A stretch of 33,380 bases of DNA from Nitrospirota bacterium (GTDB lineage Bacteria > Nitrospirota > Thermodesulfovibrionia > Thermodesulfovibrionales > Dissulfurispiraceae): assembly GCA_040754455.1 (NCBI GenBank), contig JBFMCP010000036.1, forward strand, positions 1 through 33,380, in the 5' to 3' direction. Positions within the stretch are counted from its first letter, which is position 1. Each line of letters starts with the position of its first letter. Shown here in pieces: positions 717 through 12,642 of the stretch. Made by a program: the position numbers and the translations under genes. Below the pieces are notes generated by a model that made no database searches, was not told the DNA's origin, and worked only from the letters and a program-made list of their open reading frames with translations.

Positions 717-2921
717 TTATATTATCAACTCATCCGGCTCGTACATCATGGACTTGTCAGGGCAGAAGCCAAGCTCAGAATTATACATTGCCCCGCTGAC
801 CTGGACAAATATCCCGGGATGCGCCTCAATAATAGAGCCTTCTTTATAGAGCTTTGAATGAACATACTTTGGCAGATTTACAATGTATCTTTGAATCTTA
901 CGCATCAGCCATCTTTCGGGACCAAATTCTTTAAGCACCTCTATCAACTCTGCGCCCTCTTCATAGCAGACAATCACAGGCGCATACTGCGATTCGTCAA
1001 TTAGTTTGAATTTTTGCGCTGCCGAAAGAAAGCTGAATCGTAGCTCTCTGTCCGGAGCAAGGTCTTTTAAAATATCGTGTTTGTCAAGATTATTTCCTTG
1101 CAGCCAATAAAGCTGCTTGAAGAACTTTTCAAATCTTTCAGGTGCAAGATGGTCATCTATCTTTTCTCCAATTAACTGCCTCCCTATTTCGCCTGCCTGT
1201 TTAAGGTAACCAGAAGGAATTTTGCTCGGAGGCATAAACACGACAACACAGCCTTTCTCAAGCAATCCTTCTCTATTACATCTGCCCGCTGCTTGAGCAA
1301 TTGAGTCAAGTCCGGCGATTGCACGGTAGACAACAGAAAAATCAAGATCAACGCCTGCTTCAACAAGCTGTGTGCTGATGACACGGGTCGGTATTTTATC
1401 TTTCAATCTCTGTCTTATTTGATTGATAACTTTCGAGCGATGCTTGCCGCACATAAGAGCGGAAAGATGGAACGTCTTTTCTCCTTTATCGGGCATCAAT
1501 TCATAGAGCGTCCGGCAGTCATCACGTCGGTTGACTATGCATAAGACGGAAGAATATTGACTAAGCTCGGATGCAAGGTCTTCCCATGTGCGCGGCGTCA
1601 TAAGATCATCAGGGATAACTTCTACACGCTTGAACGTTTTATAAAGCGATAAAGGATTCTCCATAATCTCTACGGTATCCGCAAGGCCTTCAAAACTATA
1701 ATCAATAGATTTGTGCGGTGTAAATGCTGGCTGTGTGGCTGTGCTGAGGACAAAAGTAACGCCGTAGTTCTGATTTAATTCTTTGATGATATGAAGAACG
1801 GGTTTGAGATATTCTGGCGGCAGTAACTGGACCTCATCAAGCACAACGACGCTGTTGACAATGTTGTGGAGCTTGCGGCAGCGGCTTGAACGGTTTGAAA
1901 ACAATGATTCAAAGAATTGAACAGATGTTGTAACAATAACCGGCGCATCCCAGTTTTCAGATGCCAACCTGCTTTTTATAGTCTCTATGCTTTTGTCATG
2001 GACATCAACATTACTGTGATGTTCTACAACAGCATTGCCGAATATTTGTCTGAATTGATCTGCGGTTTGCTCAATAATGCTTGTATAAGGAATAACATAG
2101 ATAATCCGCCTCTTGTCAAACTTCACTGCATGGTTTAGCGCAAACGCCATTGATGAGAGCGTCTTACCCCCACCGGTAGGAACGGTCAATGTAAATATCG
2201 CAGGCTCATGAGCCGACTTTGTCACACATTGCTTGAAAATATGAGCCCGTTGTTTGTTGACAAAAGTATTGTCTGCATTTGCCTGTTTATCAGCCATATA
2301 AGATTTAAAAAGCGGCAGCAACTCATTGAGCGATGGATAGCCTTTTCGCGTTTTAGCTTTTTCAGGCTCAAAAAATTCTTCAGTATCGAGAAAATCGGCA
2401 TCAACAAGACATGAATAAAGCATTCTTATCCATAGGGCATGACCTTCTTTCGTCTGGAATTTCTGCTTTGGCAGTGATTGCTCTATTATATGAGCCGGAA
2501 TGCCTGAGAAGGGGAGTTTGTTGAAAAGTTCAATATTTTGAAGGCGCTGCGCAAGGCTTTTTCTTCCGGCAGTATCCGTTTGCCAATCAGCAAGCCCAGC
2601 GTGATGCCCTGCAATAAGATAGCTGAAAATCCGTCCGGCTTTACCCAATTTCTCAATTGCGTGAATTGCCCCTGCTGTCGAATGATCTACCTGAGCCTTT
2701 GCCTCCAGATGGGCTTCAGGTCCATCGGAGGCTGCGCAGACCTTCTTCTGAAAAGCAAAAGAGTATTTCCCTAAGTCATGCCACAACCCCGCCAGATAGC
2801 CCCATTCACCGCAGCCGAATTCGGCGGCAAAATCCGCAGCCTTTTTCGCAGTGCCAATCAGATGCTCATCGAGCCCGTGCTCTCTGCCGTCTTCGGCGAT
2901 ATGTGCAAAATATTTGCTCAT
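717..2921 (-). CDS. cas3: CRISPR-associated HD nuclease/helicase Cas3
   Basis: N-terminal HD (HDLGK, HH, DAD), Walker A PTGGGKT, DEVQ, SAT and QAAGRCNR helicase motifs; adjacent to cas5c. Confidence 0.96.
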   Translation of the reverse strand: MSKYFAHIAEDGREHGLDEHLIGTAKKAADFAAEFGCGEWGYLAGLWHDLGKYSFAFQKKVCAASDGPEAHLEAKAQVDHSTAGAIHAIEKLGKAGRIFSYLIAGHHAGLADWQTDTAGRKSLAQRLQNIELFNKLPFSGIPAHIIEQSLPKQKFQTKEGHALWIRMLYSCLVDADFLDTEEFFEPEKAKTRKGYPSLNELLPLFKSYMADKQANADNTFVNKQRAHIFKQCVTKSAHEPAIFTLTVPTGGGKTLSSMAFALNHAVKFDKRRIIYVIPYTSIIEQTADQFRQIFGNAVVEHHSNVDVHDKSIETIKSRLASENWDAPVIVTTSVQFFESLFSNRSSRCRKLHNIVNSVVVLDEVQLLPPEYLKPVLHIIKELNQNYGVTFVLSTATQPAFTPHKSIDYSFEGLADTVEIMENPLSLYKTFKRVEVIPDDLMTPRTWEDLASELSQYSSVLCIVNRRDDCRTLYELMPDKGEKTFHLSALMCGKHRSKVINQIRQRLKDKIPTRVISTQLVEAGVDLDFSVVYRAIAGLDSIAQAAGRCNREGLLEKGCVVVFMPPSKIPSGYLKQAGEIGRQLIGEKIDDHLAPERFEKFFKQLYWLQGNNLDKHDILKDLAPDRELRFSFLSAAQKFKLIDESQYAPVIVCYEEGAELIEVLKEFGPERWLMRKIQRYIVNLPKYVHSKLYKEGSIIEAHPGIFVQVSGAMYNSELGFCPDKSMMYEPDELII

Positions 2922-3219: not shown

Positions 3220-4164
3220 TTAAAGCACGCCGCACTCTCGTGGCGTGCAGAACAACCCGGTGCTGAAGTACCTGTCTCCTCTATCGGGAAACAGGACCAC
3301 TACCTTTTTCCCTCTGCCGAGCCTTTGGGCGATCCTCATTGCCGCCCACATCGCCGCGCCGGAAGATATCCCGGCGAGGATCCCCTCCCTGTGCGCAAGC
3401 TGACGTGCCGTCTCCGCAGCATCTTCGTCGGTGACCGGGATGATCTCACCGTATATTTTCGAATTCAATACTCCAGGGAAGAATCCCGCGCCGAGACCGG
3501 CGATCTTATGGCTGCCTGGGTCGCCACCCGACAGCACCGGAGAGCCTGCCGGCTCGACAGCAACGATCAGGATATCGGGCTTCTTCTCTCTGAAGACTTC
3601 TCCATTTCCGGTGATGGTGCCGCCGGTGCCGACCCCGGCGACAAAAGCGTCGGGCACACTGCCGAGATCGCGTATGATTTCCGGTGCGGTTGTTTTCCGG
3701 TGCGCTTCAGGATTTGCAGGGTTTTCGAACTGCAGTGGTATAAAAGCATTCGGTGTAGTTTTACGGAGATATTCCGCCCTATCCCATGCGCCCATCATTC
3801 CCTTATCACCCGGCGTCAGCACCAGCTCGACTCCATAAGCACTGAGCATCTGTCTTCTCTCCATCGACATGGTTTCGGGCATGGTAAGGATAAGCCGGTA
3901 CCCTTTTACTGCAGCGATGAGCGCAAGCCCGATACCGGTATTGCCACTCGTCGGCTCGATAATGGTTCCGCCGGACTTCAGCACTCCTTCCCGTTCAGCA
4001 GCCTCGATCATGGAGAGCGCGACCCTGTCCTTCACCGAGCCTCCGGGATTGTGTCCTTCGAGCTTGGCCCAAACTTCGGCGCTGTCATCGCCTATCATCA
4101 TGCGATTGATTTTTACCAGTGGCGTGTTTCCTATAAGGCACAATATGTTTTCTTGTCGTGCCAT
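3220..4164 (-). CDS. cysK: Cysteine synthase A (O-acetylserine sulfhydrylase)
   Basis: IGNTPLV, PLP-lysine motif NPGGSVKDR, EPTSGNTG, GVGTGGT, GISSGA. Confidence 0.93.
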   Translation of the reverse strand: MARQENILCLIGNTPLVKINRMMIGDDSAEVWAKLEGHNPGGSVKDRVALSMIEAAEREGVLKSGGTIIEPTSGNTGIGLALIAAVKGYRLILTMPETMSMERRQMLSAYGVELVLTPGDKGMMGAWDRAEYLRKTTPNAFIPLQFENPANPEAHRKTTAPEIIRDLGSVPDAFVAGVGTGGTITGNGEVFREKKPDILIVAVEPAGSPVLSGGDPGSHKIAGLGAGFFPGVLNSKIYGEIIPVTDEDAAETARQLAHREGILAGISSGAAMWAAMRIAQRLGRGKKVVVLFPDRGDRYFSTGLFCTPRECGVL

Positions 4165-4253: not shown

Positions 4254-5624
<1,371 letters not shown>

Positions 5625-5726
5625 TCAACATTCCTTTGTGTATATTGTATACATTTTGTCTGTATTTTAATCAACTCCGGTCAGCCCGCGGCTACTAAGA
5701 CATTGTTTTTTTCACCGCTTTTCTCC

Positions 5727-5742
5727 TGGCACAACTATTGCG
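5727..5742 (+). promoter_or_regulatory. Sigma54 (-24/-12) promoter
   Basis: TGGCAC-AACTA-TTGCG matches TGGCAC-N5-TTGC with correct GG/GC spacing, divergent from a bEBP gene. Predicted +1 is about 5753. Confidence 0.85.
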
Positions 5743-5752
5743 TTCAAAAACG

Positions 5753-5874
5753 ACAAGTTCAGTCATACATTGCTATCGAGATGGTAAGCCTAACCGGCCT
5801 CCTTCTGGTGAACAACCACTGGTTTGCTTACCCGCTCCCCCCGGGCAGCCTCCTGAGCGGGGCTGCCTTTTTTT
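5753..5874 (+). ncRNA. Candidate sigma54-dependent small RNA (~120 nt)
   Basis: Bounded by the sigma54 promoter and an intrinsic terminator. Nested stems GGTAAGC/GCTTACC, AACCGG/CTGGTT and TGGT/ACCA with unpaired CCTCCTTC; no SD-led ORF inside. Confidence 0.65.
5844..5874 (+). terminator. Rho-independent terminator
   Basis: GGCAGCC(TC)...(GG)GGCTGCC stem followed by T7. Confidence 0.85.
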
Positions 5875-5964
5875 ATTTCTTCATATTTTCTTCAAAATCG
5901 GATGGTATTGTAGAAGCATGAAAAGAGAAATATTCACAACAATAGTTCGTGCGGAGGACCACCT

Positions 5965-6270
5965 ATGAGATTTTTTGTTCTTTTGCTCATTGCACTCGGC
6001 GTAGCAATCATCAGCCACGGCAATGCCGGCGCAGTCAGGAGTGATAGCCGCAGCAGTTATACCATGAGTGGTGGAGCACCGTCCGCTAGCCATAGTAATT
6101 ATCGTCTGTTCGAAAGCCCGGCAGCAACAATCCCTGATACAACGGACAGCGTCGAGCAGGCGTGTCAGGACACTGCACCGGTGTGTTCCGGCCCCGCGGA
6201 GCCTCGGTATGGCGAGCGCACTGCCGAAACGTCTGCGCATGAGAAAAATGCCGGTAGGCGCACTCATTAA
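5965..6270 (+). CDS. Hypothetical secreted small protein
   Basis: SD GGAGG 7 nt upstream. Signal-peptide-like N-terminus MRFFVLLLIALGVAIISHGNAGA; Ser/Thr/Ala-rich remainder. Confidence 0.6.
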   Translation: MRFFVLLLIALGVAIISHGNAGAVRSDSRSSYTMSGGAPSASHSNYRLFESPAATIPDTTDSVEQACQDTAPVCSGPAEPRYGERTAETSAHEKNAGRRTH

Positions 6271-6407
6271 ACAGGTGGAAAAACATTCGGTTATGTTGAC
6301 AACAGGTGATCAATGTGATAAGTGTCTGAAAGGAGATGGTACAGTCTTCCGATCATATAAAAACGTTGTCTCATAGAAAACACTCTACAATTTCAAGAGG
6401 AGGTAGT

Positions 6408-6797
6408 ATGAAAAGGATACTGGTGGTAGTAATGGTTGTGCTTTTCATAGCTGGCATCGCGTATGCGAAGGACTATGAGGTGAAGAAGAAAGCAGGAGAG
6501 TATGAGGTCACTGCACGGATCGACAGGAACCCCCCTGTCGCAGGTGAGAACAATATTGCAGTCGCAGTGAAGGATGCATCAGGAAACGCTGTCACCGATG
6601 CCAAGGTGAAGGTGGAGTACTCCATGCCTGCAATGCCGGGCATGCCGCCGATGAGTTACAAGACCGATGCGACGTTGAGCGGCAGCGAATACAAAGGGAA
6701 AATCAACCTCTCCATGGCAGGCCCGTGGAATGTCATTGTTAAGATAACCCGAGGCGGAAAAACATCATCAATGAAATTCAGCGTGGACGCGAGGTGA
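6408..6797 (+). CDS. YtkA/FixH-like periplasmic Ig-fold protein associated with metal efflux
   Basis: Start moved to ATG 6408 (SD GGAGG). Signal peptide, Met-rich MPAMPGMPPM, C-terminal LSMAGPW; first gene of a cus-like operon. Confidence 0.8.
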   Translation: MKRILVVVMVVLFIAGIAYAKDYEVKKKAGEYEVTARIDRNPPVAGENNIAVAVKDASGNAVTDAKVKVEYSMPAMPGMPPMSYKTDATLSGSEYKGKINLSMAGPWNVIVKITRGGKTSSMKFSVDAR

Positions 6798-6801
6798 TAC
6801 T

Positions 6802-8130
6802 ATGATGCGGGGACACGGAGACACAGAGACACGGAGCGGTATTCAGGTCCGATTCACCCGTTCCTTGCTGCTCCGGTTCATACTGCTGTGTGTCATCGCT
6901 ACCTTTTTTTCCATGCAGAGTGCTTCTGCCCGAGAATTGACGCTTCAGGATTTGATCAGCGAGGCGCTCCAGAAGAGTCCCGAGATCCATGCTGCGCAGG
7001 CACGGGCAGCGGCATCGCAGTTCAAGATACCTCAGGCTAAGAGTTTACCTGACCCCATGCTCATGTTCGGCTACCAGAATGAGGGATATGAAAAGTTCAA
7101 TTACGGAAAATCCGAAGACGCCCAGTTCATGTATTCCGTATCGCAAATGTTTCCCTTTCCCGGCAAACGCGGATTGAAAGGCGAGATGGCAGCACGTGAG
7201 GCCGAGAGCCTTGCCGCGTCATCCGGCTCCACGAAATTAAAAACCATAGCACGAATAAAAGAGCTCTACTACGACCTCTTCTTCACCTATAAGAGCATCG
7301 ATCTCCTTAAGGATCGGACCGAGCTGTTCTCCCAAATAGAGAATGCAGCGCTTGCCCGCTATTCGTCAGGAATGGCGCCGCAGCAGGAAGTGCTGATGGC
7401 GCAGACGGAAAAATATATGCTCCTCGAAAGAGAAGAGATGCTCAAGCAGAAGATACAGGCTCTGGAAGCCATGCTCAATACCACGGTGGGGAGAAAGGTT
7501 GACGCCCCGCTCGGCAGGCCGGTCGAGCCGAACTATGATCCCTACCCCCGCAGCCTGGACGAGTTGATCGCTGTAGCCTATGAGCGTTCTCCCGACGTCA
7601 AGGCAAAGGAAAAGATGGTCGCCGCTGCCGAGGCAAGGATCAAAATGGCAAAGAGGGAATACTATCCCGATATTACACTAGCCGGCAGCGTCTTCGAGAG
7701 AAAAAACTTTGATGATATGTGGAGCGTGACGACGACCGTCAATGTCCCCATCTTTTACCGCTCAAAACAGCGCCAGGCGGTGCATGAGGCTGAAGCATCG
7801 CTTTCAGAGGCACAAAGCGAGCTCGATGCTACGAAGCTCATGCTCTCCTCGGCCATCCGCGACAACTATTCCATGCTCAAGACAACGGAGCGGCTGATGG
7901 ATTTGTATCGCGAAGGACTCATTCCCAAGACATATCAGGATTTCGAGTCGGCCCTTGCCGGCTACGGCACCGGGAAGATCGAAGCGATAACAGTGATCAA
8001 CAGACTCAAGGCGATCATTGACTTCGAGACTTCCTACTGGGGACAGCTCGCTGAGAGAGAGAAGGCCAAAGCAAGAATCGAAGCTCTGACGGGGATTGCG
8101 GAAGGAATCGACGAAACGGCGAGACAGTGA
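6802..8130 (+). CDS. TolC-family outer membrane efflux protein (CusC/CzcC-like)
   Basis: LPDPML, SQMFPFPGKRGL, YYPDITL helical OEP pattern; lies upstream of MFP and RND genes. Confidence 0.9.
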   Translation: MMRGHGDTETRSGIQVRFTRSLLLRFILLCVIATFFSMQSASARELTLQDLISEALQKSPEIHAAQARAAASQFKIPQAKSLPDPMLMFGYQNEGYEKFNYGKSEDAQFMYSVSQMFPFPGKRGLKGEMAAREAESLAASSGSTKLKTIARIKELYYDLFFTYKSIDLLKDRTELFSQIENAALARYSSGMAPQQEVLMAQTEKYMLLEREEMLKQKIQALEAMLNTTVGRKVDAPLGRPVEPNYDPYPRSLDELIAVAYERSPDVKAKEKMVAAAEARIKMAKREYYPDITLAGSVFERKNFDDMWSVTTTVNVPIFYRSKQRQAVHEAEASLSEAQSELDATKLMLSSAIRDNYSMLKTTERLMDLYREGLIPKTYQDFESALAGYGTGKIEAITVINRLKAIIDFETSYWGQLAEREKAKARIEALTGIAEGIDETARQ

Positions 8131-8146
8131 ACCAGAAAGGAAAACG

Positions 8147-9397
8147 ATGAATAAGAGAAACATTATCATTATCGCTGCTGCAATCGGCCTCATAGCAGGA
8201 ATTCTCTTCGCAGCGTTTTCAAAAACGGGTTCACGTTTTCTTAATAAATCCGTTCAGGAGAAAACAGTGCAGACGACTCCTGCAGCACCTCCGGCTGCAG
8301 GACACCAGGGGCATGGAGGGGGAGCACCACCTCCTCCGTCTTCCGAAGCGTCGGCACAGGAACAGGTTGCCGGAGAGGAGCCACAGACCATCGAGATCCC
8401 ACCCGAAAAGCAACAGCTGATCGGCGTCAAGGTCGTCACCGCAGCAGTGAAGCCGCTCAAGAAGACGATCAGGACGGTAGGCCGTGTCGAATACGACGAG
8501 CGGAAAGTCGCCACCATCAACACCAAAATCGAGGGCTGGATCGAACGGCTCCACGTGAATTACACCGGCAGGTTCGTGAAGAAAGGAGAGCCCCTCGCCG
8601 AGATCTACAGCCCCGAGCTTGTGGCGACACAGAGAGAATATCTGAATGTGTTGAGGTGGGCGCAGCAGGGTACCCGCGGGGGGAGCGAGACCTCGGGGAC
8701 ATTAAGCAAAATGTTCACACGGGATGCCGAAGCGATGCGCGAGGCTGCAAAACAACGTTTGAAGCTCTGGGATATCACCGAATCACAAATCAAGAAAATC
8801 GAGACGACCGGAACGCCGATCCGTACCCTTGCGATCTACAGCCCGGTCAGCGGGTATGTGGTGCAGAAGATGGCGCTCCAGGGGATGCGGGTGATGCCTG
8901 GTGAGAAGCTCTTCGATATCGCCGACCTCTCGACGGTATGGGTGATAGCCGATATCTATGAGTACGAATTGCCTTTGATAAAAACGGGCGAGTCAGCTGC
9001 CATCACGTTAAGCTATTTTCCTGATAAGGTTCTTCATTCGAAAATCGACTTCATCTATCCTGTGCTCGCCGGAGAGACGAGGACCGCCAAAGTGCGGTTC
9101 GTCATCCCCAACCCCGGAGGCCAACTCAAGCCACAGATGTTCACCAATGTCGAGCTGCACATTGACATCGGCAATAAACTGGTAATCCCCGATGATGCGA
9201 TCATCAACACCGGAACGCGGCGGATCGTGTATGTCGACAAGGGTGAAGGATATTTCGAGCCGAGGGATATCACGGCAGGAATAAGCGCTGAAGGAATGAC
9301 CGAAGTGGTACGCGGACTCAAGGCAGGCGAAAAGGTCGCGGCCTCGGCAACCTTCCTCATTGACTCTGAGGCACGGCTGAAAGGCATCGTTAAATAA
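8147..9397 (+). CDS. cusB: RND efflux periplasmic adaptor, CusB-like
   Basis: Start moved to ATG 8147 (SD AAGGA). N-terminal TM, GWIERLHVNYTG, YSPELVATQREY, LKPQMF, FLIDSE; stop overlaps the cusA start. Confidence 0.85.
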   Translation: MNKRNIIIIAAAIGLIAGILFAAFSKTGSRFLNKSVQEKTVQTTPAAPPAAGHQGHGGGAPPPPSSEASAQEQVAGEEPQTIEIPPEKQQLIGVKVVTAAVKPLKKTIRTVGRVEYDERKVATINTKIEGWIERLHVNYTGRFVKKGEPLAEIYSPELVATQREYLNVLRWAQQGTRGGSETSGTLSKMFTRDAEAMREAAKQRLKLWDITESQIKKIETTGTPIRTLAIYSPVSGYVVQKMALQGMRVMPGEKLFDIADLSTVWVIADIYEYELPLIKTGESAAITLSYFPDKVLHSKIDFIYPVLAGETRTAKVRFVIPNPGGQLKPQMFTNVELHIDIGNKLVIPDDAIINTGTRRIVYVDKGEGYFEPRDITAGISAEGMTEVVRGLKAGEKVAASATFLIDSEARLKGIVK

Positions 9398-12300
9398 TGA
9401 TCGCAAAAATCATCGAGTACAGTGCGCGGAACAAGTTCATCATCTTCCTGCTCGTCTTCTTTCTCGCTGCCTGGGGGTACTGGTCGCTCAAGAAGACGCC
9501 GCTCGACGCCATTCCGGATTTAAGCGACACGCAGGTCATCATCTTTACCGAATGGGAGGGGAGGAGCCCTGACCTCATCGAGGACCAGATCACCTATCCT
9601 ATTACTTCTACACTCCTTGCCGCGCCGAACGTCCAGGTAGTGCGCGGCTTCTCATTCCTGGGGAGCTCGTTCATCTATGTCATCTTCGAAGAGGGTACGA
9701 ATATCTACTGGGCGCGGAGCAGGGTGCTCGAGTATCTACAGGCAGTGAAGAACAAACTTCCCGCCGACGTCAACCCTGTGCTCGGCCCCGATGCAACAAG
9801 CGTGGGATGGGGGTTCTCCTATGCTGTGGTCGACGAGACAGGGCAACATACTCTCGCCGATCTCCGCTCGGTGCAAGATTGGAACATAAAACTTGCCCTC
9901 GAAAGCGTTCCCGGCGTCTCGCAGGTGGCGAGCATCGGCGGGTTCGTCAAACAGTACCAGATCGTCATTGACCCGAACCGCCTCCTTGCCTACAATCTTG
10001 CGCTCGATACCGTGATGAATGCCATAAAGAGGAGCAACAAGGACGTCGAGGGCCGGGTACTCGAATTCTCCGGGGTCGAATACATGGTGAGGGGAAGAGG
10101 ATATGTCAGGAACATAAAGGACCTCGAGAATATCCCTGTTGCTTCGAGCGGTGCGGGAACCGCCGTCTTTCTGCGCGATGTCGCAAAGGTGCAGCTCGGC
10201 CCTGAGATCAGGAGAGGGCTTGCTGAGCTCGACGGCAAAGGTGAAGTGGCCGGAGGCATCGTCGTCGTCCGCTTCGGTGAAAATGTGCTCAATGTAATCG
10301 AACGCGTTAAAGAGAAAATAAAGAATGATATTGCGCCGAGCCTGCCCAAGGGCATGAAGATCATCACCACCTATGACCGCTCCGACCTGATCCACCGCTC
10401 GATTGATACCCTGAAGGAAGAGATTCTCAGACTTTCAATTGCCGTGAGTGTTGTCTGCGCGGTCTTCCTTTTTCATCTGCCCAGCGCACTGGTCGTTATC
10501 CTTACGCTGCCGTTTGCCATCATTATTTCTTTCGTGTTGATGTACTACCTCGGTGTTACGTCCAACATCATGAGCCTGAGCGGCATCGCGATCGCCATCG
10601 GCGCCATGGTGGACGCATCGATCATTATGGTGGAGAATGCCCACAAAAAACTCGAGGAGTGGGAACATGCTGGCAGACCGGACAGTCGCACCGAGGTTAT
10701 CATCGTGGCGGCAAAGGAAGTAGGCCCTTCCCTCTTTTTCTCCCTGCTCGTCATCACCGTCGGCTTTCTGCCGGTCTTTACGCTCCAGGCACAGGCAGGA
10801 AGGCTCTTCAAGCCGCTGGCGTATACAAAGACCTTCGCCATGCTCTTTTCCTCCTTCCTCGCGGTGACGCTGACGCCGGTGCTGATGACCCTCTTCATCC
10901 GCGGGAAGATCAGACCTGAAGATAAAAATCCGATAAGCACCATTCTCCGTAAGATATACGAACCCTTCGCAAAGCTCGCGCTCCGCTTTAAGTGGGGCGT
11001 CATCATCCTCGCACTAATTATCATGGCGTTGACCGCTTATCCCTATATGAAGCTCGGTTCCGAGTTCATGCCGCCGCTCTATGAGGGGACGCTTTTCTAT
11101 ATGCCGGTGACCGTGCCCGCCGCCTCGATTACCGAGGTATCGAAGCTGCTCCAGATGCAGGACAAGCTCCTGAAGACAATCCCTGAAGTGGAGCAGGTCT
11201 TCGGCAAGGCAGGACGCGCCGAAACCGCCACCGACCCGGCGCCGCTCGAAATGTTCGAGACGATCATCAATCTCAAGCCTGAATCCCAATGGCGTCCGGG
11301 GATGACCGTTGAGCAGTTGAAGAACGAGATGAATGATGTACTCACCATACCAGGAGTGGCAAACTCCTTCACCATGCCGATCAAGGCCCGTACCGATATG
11401 CTCTCCACCGGCATAAGGACGCCCGTCGGGATCAAGGTCATGGGCTCGAACCTCGAGGAAATCGAACGCATCGGATTGGAAATTGAAACTCTCCTCAAAG
11501 ATATCCCGGGCACGCGGAGCGTCTATGCCGAGCGGGTGACCACCGGCTATTTTCTCGACTTTACGGTAAAGCGCGACGAGGCAGCGCGGTACGGACTCAC
11601 CGTCGATGATGTCCAGGAGGTTATTCAGTCCGCGATCGGCGGTATGAACCTCACCACGACCATTGAGGGAAGAGAGCGCTATCCTGTAAATGTTCGTTAT
11701 CAGCGCGATTTCAGAAGCGACATCGAACAGCTCAAACGTGTATTTGTACCGATCATGATGCAGGGAAGGAATGCACCGTCCGGTCAGGGTATGCCGGGAG
11801 GCCGGGGAGCGTCTTCCGTCACGGCGTCGACACTCGCTGCGCCGACAGCTCCCTACTCTCTTACGGCCGTGCCGGCCTCTCTCCAGGTTCCCATCGGTGA
11901 GCTCGCCGACATAAGGATCGTCCGCGGACCTACGGGGATCAAAAGCGAAGAGGGCCTGCTCGCCTCGTATGTCTTTATCGACTTTACCGGCAGGGATATA
12001 GGCAGCTATGTCGAAGAGGCGAAGAAAAAAGTCGCCTCCTTGAAAATACCCGAAGGCTACCGCCTGGAGTGGAGCGGAGAATACGAGTACCTGGTAAAAA
12101 CACAAGAGCGGCTCAAGATCGTCATACCGCTCACGATCCTGATCATCTTCGTGCTGATCTTCATGAATACCAAGTCGGTGACGAAGACCTTCATCGTGCT
12201 TCTGGCCGTGCCTTTCTCGCTCGTCGGCTCGTTCTGGCTCCTCTATATCCTCGGTTACAACATGAGCATTGCCGTATGGGTCGGCATCATCGCCCTCGCG

Positions 12301-12642
12301 GGACTTGATGCCGAGACCGGCGTGGTCATGCTCCTCTATCTCGAGCTTGCCTACGATCAATGGAAGAAGGAGGGAAGGCTCAAAGGCATTGCCGATCTCA
12401 AGGAGGCGATCATGCACGGCGCGGTGAAGAGGATACGGCCCAAGATCATGACGGTAAGCGTTATCCTCGCCGGTCTGATCCCGATCATGTTCAGCCACGG
12501 CACCGGTGCGGATGTGATGAAACGCATCGCGGCCCCCATGGTCGGCGGCGTCATCACCTCGACCATCCTCGAACTGATCATCTATCCTGCGATCTATCTG
12601 ATCTGGAAACAGCGGGAGTTAAAAAAACAACCTGGTGCATAG
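9397..12642 (+). CDS. cusA: CusA/CzcA-family heavy-metal RND permease, Cu(I)/Ag(I) type
   Basis: DAIPDLSDTQVI, GPDAT, AIGAMVDA. Met-triad contexts FYMP, APLEM and RTDML match those of E. coli CusA; RIRPKIMT. Confidence 0.93.
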   Translation: MIAKIIEYSARNKFIIFLLVFFLAAWGYWSLKKTPLDAIPDLSDTQVIIFTEWEGRSPDLIEDQITYPITSTLLAAPNVQVVRGFSFLGSSFIYVIFEEGTNIYWARSRVLEYLQAVKNKLPADVNPVLGPDATSVGWGFSYAVVDETGQHTLADLRSVQDWNIKLALESVPGVSQVASIGGFVKQYQIVIDPNRLLAYNLALDTVMNAIKRSNKDVEGRVLEFSGVEYMVRGRGYVRNIKDLENIPVASSGAGTAVFLRDVAKVQLGPEIRRGLAELDGKGEVAGGIVVVRFGENVLNVIERVKEKIKNDIAPSLPKGMKIITTYDRSDLIHRSIDTLKEEILRLSIAVSVVCAVFLFHLPSALVVILTLPFAIIISFVLMYYLGVTSNIMSLSGIAIAIGAMVDASIIMVENAHKKLEEWEHAGRPDSRTEVIIVAAKEVGPSLFFSLLVITVGFLPVFTLQAQAGRLFKPLAYTKTFAMLFSSFLAVTLTPVLMTLFIRGKIRPEDKNPISTILRKIYEPFAKLALRFKWGVIILALIIMALTAYPYMKLGSEFMPPLYEGTLFYMPVTVPAASITEVSKLLQMQDKLLKTIPEVEQVFGKAGRAETATDPAPLEMFETIINLKPESQWRPGMTVEQLKNEMNDVLTIPGVANSFTMPIKARTDMLSTGIRTPVGIKVMGSNLEEIERIGLEIETLLKDIPGTRSVYAERVTTGYFLDFTVKRDEAARYGLTVDDVQEVIQSAIGGMNLTTTIEGRERYPVNVRYQRDFRSDIEQLKRVFVPIMMQGRNAPSGQGMPGGRGASSVTASTLAAPTAPYSLTAVPASLQVPIGELADIRIVRGPTGIKSEEGLLASYVFIDFTGRDIGSYVEEAKKKVASLKIPEGYRLEWSGEYEYLVKTQERLKIVIPLTILIIFVLIFMNTKSVTKTFIVLLAVPFSLVGSFWLLYILGYNMSIAVWVGIIALAGLDAETGVVMLLYLELAYDQWKKEGRLKGIADLKEAIMHGAVKRIRPKIMTVSVILAGLIPIMFSHGTGADVMKRIAAPMVGGVITSTILELIIYPAIYLIWKQRELKKQPGA

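Follow-up and report, generated by a model that had tools for sequence, protein, structure and literature searches.

In the stretch of DNA analysed here (the window, 33,380 nt), a bEBP- and sigma-54-dependent promoter now probably gives rise to a transcript that terminates after about 120 nt, a reading that is well supported by comparison with related genomes. As to the nature of this transcript, we make a tentative proposal, to which we give somewhat less than an even chance: it may be a young, species-restricted anti-Shine-Dalgarno small RNA (sRNA) that is induced together with sulfur-amino-acid genes. It would be young and restricted to one species because the protein operon once served by the promoter moved away in an ancestor, and within the lineage concerned the old promoter was kept only in the species of the window.

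The activator gene, its probable binding site and the promoter

The control region between the divergent activator gene and the RNA unit comprises the following features.

4254-5624, minus strand: bEBP gene, 456 aa, with sigma-54 interaction AAA+ domain, lid and Fis-type HTH
5637-5653, no strand assigned: palindrome TGTGTA-TATTG-TATACA, the probable bEBP binding site (UAS), kept beside orthologous bEBPs
5668-5674, no strand assigned: second conserved box TAATCAA, seen by eye in orthologous upstream regions and also in a three-way alignment (see below)
5727-5741, plus strand: sigma-54 -24/-12 promoter, a consensus match at a position orthologous to promoters in relatives

The first-pass annotation had called a near-consensus sigma-54 promoter, and the element TGGCAC-N5-TTGC (TGGCACAACTATTGC) was indeed found on the plus strand at 5727-5741. 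The GG at -24 and the GC at -12 stand at the fixed spacing, and all ten specified promoter bases are intact in this genome. With C5741 taken as -12, transcription is predicted to start near A5753. The genome carries rpoN (Sigma54_DBD match of 211.6 bits, contig C22) and contains 48 sites of the form TGGCAY-N5-TTGC, against about 13 expected from composition. A terminator-like site follows within about 175 nt in two of the 48; one of these is the site at 5727, and the other sits within an lpxC-like coding region (named by eye from the translation). The base after TTGC is a T in 30 sites, an A in 11, a C in 6 and a G in a single case. This sole G belongs to the promoter at 5727-5741 and marks a deviation.

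The earlier description of the bEBP as an orphan has limited justification: its gene has no kinase gene as a neighbour, and no Pfam match was obtained for the first 130 residues. The protein also had no NCBIfam equivalog at its cut-off. A cysK-type cysteine synthase (3220-4164) is encoded behind the bEBP gene, and a Cas3 gene (HD nuclease and helicase; 717-2921, minus strand) lies two genes away from it. A protein search of 68 genomes of the family identified full-length bEBP orthologues with 63-77% identity in 25 loci (L003-L027), and the best-scoring non-orthologous matches were 40-41% identical (up to 49% over shorter stretches). Thirteen bEBP-like loci on JGI metagenome contigs, all with at most 55% identity, were set aside as paralogues. 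Twelve bEBP-like loci in species genomes, with at most 49% identity, were likewise dismissed as candidates for closer orthologues.

The sigma-54 promoter recurs in the orthologous loci. TGGCAY-N5-TTG was present in 22 of the 25, with the strict TTGC in 19, and in most loci it stands about 95-108 nt from the bEBP start; the whole 15-mer of 5727-5741 is identical in locus L013. The palindrome is similarly widespread. A copy of TGTATA-N5-TATACA with at most one mismatch adjoins the bEBP start in 24 of the 25 loci, and in the window it precedes the promoter by 90 nt. Among the 22 promoter-bearing loci, the spacing is 87-90 nt in 16, 78 nt in 3, 100 nt in 1, and 190 or 193 nt in 2; these spacing classes (78, 87-90, 100 and about 190 nt) differ from one another by an integral number of helical turns. 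A UAS would be expected about 80-150 bp from a sigma-54 promoter, and a candidate for it is kept across the orthologous loci. In the 3.27-Mb genome, the pattern TGT[AG]TA-N5-TA[AT]ACA has two occurrences (contig C24 and window position 5637), each 90 nt before a sigma-54 promoter; as the pattern was written from those two sites, the count of two is partly circular, and the equal spacing alone is independent.

Taken together, palindrome and promoter are arranged as one would expect of an enhancer and the promoter under its control. The link between the promoter and the divergent bEBP, which had been proposed at the outset, is thereby strengthened: the palindrome lies 90 nt upstream, and helically phased spacing is kept in the orthologous loci. 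Judged by this conservation, the promoter at 5727-5741 is very probably the ancestral target promoter of the divergent bEBP.

The predicted RNA, its conservation and its possible targets

Downstream of the promoter, the following elements of the putative RNA unit were recognized.

5753-5782, plus strand: predicted 5' end of the RNA, with a start near A5753 deduced from the -12 element and a tail largely unpaired to about 5777
5783-5832, plus strand: long hairpin, from fold and pairing probabilities, with the one-sided bulge CCUCCUUC at 5798-5805 and an apical loop at 5810-5814
5838-5842, plus strand: unpaired C-run linker, from pairing probabilities
5843-5874, plus strand: intrinsic terminator, with a 10-pair stem (7 G-C) and 6-nt loop CUGAGC at 5843-5868, then a T-run

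The region 5750-5878 folds at -44.8 kcal/mol, compared with -33.2 +/- 3.6 kcal/mol for shuffled sequences (z = -3.24; 1 of 200 shuffles was as stable). The long hairpin with its CCUCC bulge, as described in the first-pass annotation, is present, and a short outer stem of 3 bp pairs 5778-5780 with 5835-5837. Each base of the bulge CCUCCUUC is predicted to be unpaired with a probability of at least 0.97, and with the C-run at 5838-5842, predicted unpaired at the same level, two C/U-rich seeds would be exposed. The strong terminator reported about 120 nt downstream of the promoter was recovered as the stem-loop at 5843-5868 plus the T-run. The second CCUCCU (5849-5854) does lie in the terminator hairpin, half in the stem and half in the loop. 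At the genome-wide word frequency, the chance of two CCTCCT within 124 nt is about 0.002 (calculated post hoc). With its own promoter and intrinsic terminator, and without a credible coding frame, the unit has the layout of an sRNA gene.

An Rfam scan of the whole window at gathering thresholds gave 0 matches, and a permissive scan of 5600-6000 returned sub-threshold matches to irrelevant families, the best with an E-value of at least 3. Families such as Qrr, GlmY, CrcZ, alpha-r14, RsaE and others were compared as far as they are contained in release 15. This check with covariance models agrees with the earlier impression that the RNA falls outside known families. Since the sequence features were all found in their places, the original observation is confirmed.

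DNA contigs from three other studies (runs X4, X5 and X6) carry the region with about 1-3% divergence. The listed changes within the RNA are a T>C exchange at 5758 in the 5' tail, the loss of one C from the C-run (reported at 5837) in the X4 and X5 contigs, a G>T exchange at 5857 and a C inserted after 5856, both in the terminator loop, and the loss of one T from the T-run. All of them are at predicted unpaired places, in numbers too small for a test. The X6 contig has a complete difference list, and the covered part of the hairpin is unchanged in it; the X4 and X5 contigs have two further differences each outside the listing, so that the invariance of the hairpin was judged on X6 alone. In run X5, a contig with a depth of 242 (the full form has 160) joins 5684 to 5819 and skips 134 nt. 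If real, this junction would be a natural deletion of promoter and bulge.

By DNA search, the RNA locus is single copy in its own genome, and it was found in none of 40 relatives. A covariance model was derived from this one sequence with its predicted fold. It gave no credible match in the 67 other genomes of the family (best E = 0.67) and three weak matches only in a sample of 150 genomes of the order (E = 0.003-0.07 per genome). The best of the order-level matches was examined and turned out to be an ordinary terminator after a cytochrome-like gene, not a homologue of the RNA. The exact hairpin-core pattern had 0 matches in the species-genome collection, which may omit the genome of the window, and a comparison of the RNA with the upstream regions of relatives yielded only 9-10-nt chance matches. 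Conservation in relatives, by which the earlier reading was to be judged, held for the promoter; it failed for the hairpin and the CCUCC bulge, and conservation in either sequence or structure of the RNA was not found in the relatives. Within the genomes searched, the RNA appears to be unconserved and limited to a single species.

Possible targets were sought by complementarity. The genome contains the word GAAGGAGG 270 times, in 84 cases before a possible start codon, and a CCUCC seed alone cannot discriminate among Shine-Dalgarno sites. Over the whole genome, the RNA has exact complements of 11 nt (134), 12 nt (21), 13 nt (8), 14 nt (4) and 15 nt (1), a decay that is chance-like. In a duplex ranking over 8,497 crudely called gene starts, no outlier survived inspection. 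A 13-nt complement at a crude start codon lies inside a ThiD-like coding region (named by eye) and was dropped. The best match at a ribosome-binding site, the 11-nt complement AGAAGGAGGCC before an 822-aa gene on contig C9, is within chance, and the target scans of crude gene starts gave no ribosome-binding site beyond chance. We also note that CGGGGGGAGCGG, in the coding region of the bEBP (about 4401-4412, minus-strand mRNA), is a perfect 12-nt complement of the linker at 5832-5843. Our own arithmetic from the complement counts gives a post hoc P of about 0.007 for this pairing, which could be feedback or coincidence. The genome contains hfq.

The operon of the promoter in relatives and the adjacent efflux operon

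That an RNA is the product of the promoter, as first proposed, would hold for the window, where the promoter is followed by the terminator, but not for the relatives, where the same promoter drives a protein operon. ORFs were listed for 10 orthologous loci, and in 6 of them the promoter is followed by a gene for a small conserved protein of 103-130 aa (for example L015:1024-1332, minus strand). In the DNA of most other orthologous loci the same gene start can be seen by eye, with L011 as an exception. The small protein has the N-terminus ..IYGLCLERL..Q and invariant G, C, R, LLE.Y, I.DIL and GLYL columns. Pfam and NCBIfam gave no matching family, and a protein-atlas look-up returned no usable match.

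The neighbours of the small-protein gene were named from translations read by eye, without a profile. In L013 and L015, it is followed by a gene for an E1-like (ThiF/MoeB-type) enzyme, and in L015 also by the start of a JAMM-like protein. The order is reversed in L019, where the E1-like gene precedes that of the small protein, and in L008, a locus without the promoter, a cysteine synthase gene stands ahead of the small protein. The small protein is possibly a new component of a sulfur-carrier pathway. The 5' leader of its gene contains about 90-130 nt of extra hairpin-rich DNA in L013 and L017; we read these extras as REP- or MITE-like insertions, which the leader tolerates.

In the genome of the window (G000), the small-protein gene was found on another contig, C24 (L032:1462-1794, minus strand; E = 5e-44), where it is followed by a homocysteine synthase gene (O-acetylhomoserine sulfhydrylase family). 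This operon has a promoter of its own, TGGCACATTGATTGC, with a palindrome of the same type exactly 90 nt upstream; the sequences between palindrome and promoter are unrelated at the two sites. The existence of a second palindrome-plus-promoter site in front of the small-protein and homocysteine synthase genes contradicts the earlier idea that bEBP and RNA form a closed two-part module.

The closest relatives by bEBP identity are G005 (77%) and G001 (75%, same genus). At their bEBP loci (L003 and L004, respectively), neither the promoter nor the small-protein gene is present. Both genomes have a single copy of the small-protein gene elsewhere, with a sigma-54 promoter and with the same divergent neighbour gene. 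As the gene is separated from the bEBP in three genomes (G000, G001 and G005) and adjoins it in G019 and G074, the sulfur operon moved before the split of the three species. Of these three, only the G000 species has retained the old promoter. A profile of the small protein, run against the six frames of 5700-5920, gave negative scores only and detected no coding remnant.

The comparison also appears to define a previously unnamed bEBP regulon in an uncultured family. Its elements would be the palindrome TGTATA-N5-TATACA with a sigma-54 promoter some 88-90 nt farther downstream, the small protein, and genes for E1-like enzymes, cysteine synthase or homocysteine synthase. This regulon stands independently of the RNA and is testable.

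In order to trace the fate of the vacated locus, the bEBP-proximal intergenic regions of G000, G001 and G005 were compared in a three-way alignment. A left block with the bEBP start, the palindrome and TAATCAAC is shared, and so is a right block, TTCATATTTyCTTCA ... TGnTATnnT ... ATG. The middle zone is wholly different, with the promoter and the RNA in G000, about 20 nt in G005 and about 330 nt in G001. The promoter is absent in both sisters, being replaced by a clean gap in G005 and by other DNA in G001, and the surrounding G000 DNA can no longer be aligned with that of relatives. The G001 insert (L004:1110-1440, minus strand) contains a long inverted repeat, the core of which (about 120-150 nt) has 45 further matches in the G001 genome at 74-100% identity; it looks like a miniature repeat element. 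Rfam scans of the G001, G005 and C24 loci gave no match.

Beyond the terminator, two features belong to the efflux genes.

5880-5920, plus strand: promoter-like block of the efflux operon, conserved in G000, G001 and G005
5965-12642, plus strand: metal-efflux operon, outside the RNA unit, coding for a small secreted ORF, a YtkA-like protein, an outer-membrane factor, a CusB/HlyD-type fusion protein and an RND pump

The promoter-like block is composed of a direct repeat TTCA-N7-TTCA (5880-5894), an extended -10 element TGgTATTGT (5903-5911) and the ATG at 5918. We infer that the efflux operon may have here a promoter of its own, activator-dependent and with an extended -10, so that the sigma-54 unit would be separate from the efflux operon. 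A scan of 5300-6500 for consensus sigma-70 promoters called no site. The ATG at 5918 stands 6 nt past the extended -10 and would give a leaderless start; its frame is 16 codons long (5918-5968) and runs into the beginning of the ORF at 5965. A 105-aa secreted CxxC protein is encoded at the equivalent place in G005.

Possible function of the RNA and comparison with known systems

In the scheme that we favor, the bEBP would bind the palindrome at 5637-5653 and activate the sigma-54 promoter at 5727-5741. Transcription would start near 5753 and stop at the terminator (about 5872). The resulting RNA of about 120 nt would begin with a free 5' tail, followed by a long hairpin exposing CCUCCUUC, then by a C-rich linker and finally by the terminator and its U-tail. 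The operon moved in the ancestor of the three species with a copy of its control region, leaving the promoter orphaned, and the RNA would be induced together with the sulfur-amino-acid genes. The signal to which the bEBP responds may be a shortage of sulfur or cysteine. Its most likely function, if any, would be the pairing of CCUCCUU with Shine-Dalgarno regions and a lowering of translation, probably with the help of Hfq. Transcription, its start and 3' end, its dependence on the bEBP and any action of the RNA in trans are predictions.

A function of the RNA is suggested by its control region, since promoter, palindrome and spacing have long outlasted the departure of the operon while neighbouring DNA diverged beyond alignment, by motifs resembling the 16S tail that are displayed in the predicted fold, and by the apparent U-tail of the terminator together with the presence of hfq. 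Some of the evidence points the other way, and agrees with the view that the unit is a functionless relic, which is nearly as likely and to which we assign about a third of the total probability. The promoter would then fire whenever the bEBP is active, the RNA would be inert, the terminator would shield the efflux operon, and the unit would be on its way to loss, as in the sister lineages. The promoter is gone in G005 and G001, which suggests loss of the unit in both; a strain with a deletion may exist in X5; a homologue of the RNA was not found in the genomes searched; and no target stood out in the scans. Rearrangements are also described as both creating and destroying sRNA-bearing intergenic regions (PMC4350180). 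A relic is harder to reconcile with the intact state of the control region (the ten promoter bases, the palindrome and the spacing of 90 nt), given that the operon moved before this species separated from G001 and G005; neutral decay would be expected to erode such a region, unless the copy of the gene at this locus disappeared a short time ago. Two CCUCCU, one of them in a stable bulge, are moreover improbable by chance.

The remaining explanations are less probable. The promoter could be out of use, owing to the G after TTGC (1 of the 48 genome sites) or to a bEBP that acts only at C24, but the -24/-12 cores are perfect and palindrome and spacing are kept, and we consider such a silent site unlikely. 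We deem it more improbable still that hairpin and terminator are a leader or attenuator of the metal-efflux operon, a regulated stop that is riboswitch-like or controlled by a protein. The arrangement would fit, since unit and operon are on the same strand, the distance from the end of the terminator is about 45 nt to the ATG at 5918 and about 90 nt to the ORF at 5965, and the scan of 5300-6500 was empty for sigma-70 consensus sites. However, the block with activator box and extended -10 lies between the terminator and the first ORF, is common to G000, G001 and G005, and is present in G001 and G005 without any sigma-54 promoter. The unit is not kept before the homologous efflux operon of G001, an Rfam riboswitch match is absent, and no convincing alternative anti-terminator pairing was seen on inspection. 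Least probable of all, to the point of being scarcely credible, is a small-protein gene that starts at the ATG at 5782, a hydrophobic frame of 46 codons ending at 5922. Frame +0 is open throughout the translated 5700-5920, and a 72-aa frame with a TTG start spans 5703-5921. Against this, the ATG at 5782 lacks a Shine-Dalgarno sequence, the frame crosses the terminator and enters the next promoter block, and no relative searched carries it.

If the RNA is made and active as an anti-Shine-Dalgarno sRNA, the locus would show the birth of an sRNA stepwise and without the evolution of a new promoter: an operon moves, its enhancer-dependent promoter remains, and a short terminated transcript joins an existing signal. 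It would add an example from sulfur metabolism to the small set of sigma-54-dependent sRNAs. A bolder version, which we regard as doubtful, is that of a datable birth of a regulatory RNA, in which the left-behind promoter was taken over for a mimic of the 16S tail and a signal for cysteine and homocysteine synthesis would also damp the translation of some Shine-Dalgarno-led mRNAs; the 12-nt complement in the mRNA of the bEBP would then hint at feedback. Should the RNA be no more than a relic, the finding would be ordinary.

Among known systems, sigma-54-dependent sRNAs driven by a bEBP include Qrr (LuxO), GlmY (GlrR) and CrcZ (CbrB), which are conserved across genera. Unlike these, the RNA described here is not conserved and has no Rfam match. 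Four non-coding RNAs in 36 regulons are reported for the sigma-54 regulome of Desulfovibrio vulgaris (PMC4641369). With all of these the RNA would share a bEBP, a -24/-12 promoter and a short terminated transcript.

By motif, the closest RNAs are alpha-r14/NfeR1, which are related to the 'cuckoo' RNAs. They are found in alpha-rhizobia and carry CCUCC-type anti-Shine-Dalgarno motifs more than once per RNA, with the ultraconserved CCUCCUCCC in unpaired regions of three hairpins; in NfeR1 the motifs silence mRNAs through occlusion of the ribosome-binding site, and its promoter is described as lacking a sigma-54 signature, so that NfeR1 is not sigma-54-dependent (PMC10746234). In the RNA of the window, by contrast, the motif stands once in a bulge and once in a partly paired copy, accompanied by a C-run, and the RNA is unconserved and without an Rfam match. 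In Salmonella, a rearranged intergenic region has also been presented as the birthplace of a species-specific sRNA (Raghavan et al., 2015; PMC4350180). There, a sigma-70 promoter arose by point mutation, whereas here a ready-made regulated sigma-54 promoter would have been left behind.

The known case most similar in arrangement is Pxr, which occurs in Myxococcus and its myxobacterial relatives. This non-coding RNA measures about 100 nt, has several stem-loops and a predicted sigma-54 promoter, and adjoins nla19, the gene of a sigma-54-dependent regulator (PMC5568312). Pxr lies downstream of its regulator and is conserved and duplicated across myxobacterial genera, whereas the RNA described here is divergent from its bEBP gene and occurs in one species. 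The two have no sequence relation. By the absence of an Rfam match and of a homologue, the RNA of the window appears to belong to none of the families compared, and in contrast to Pxr its promoter is one that, in relatives, serves a protein operon.
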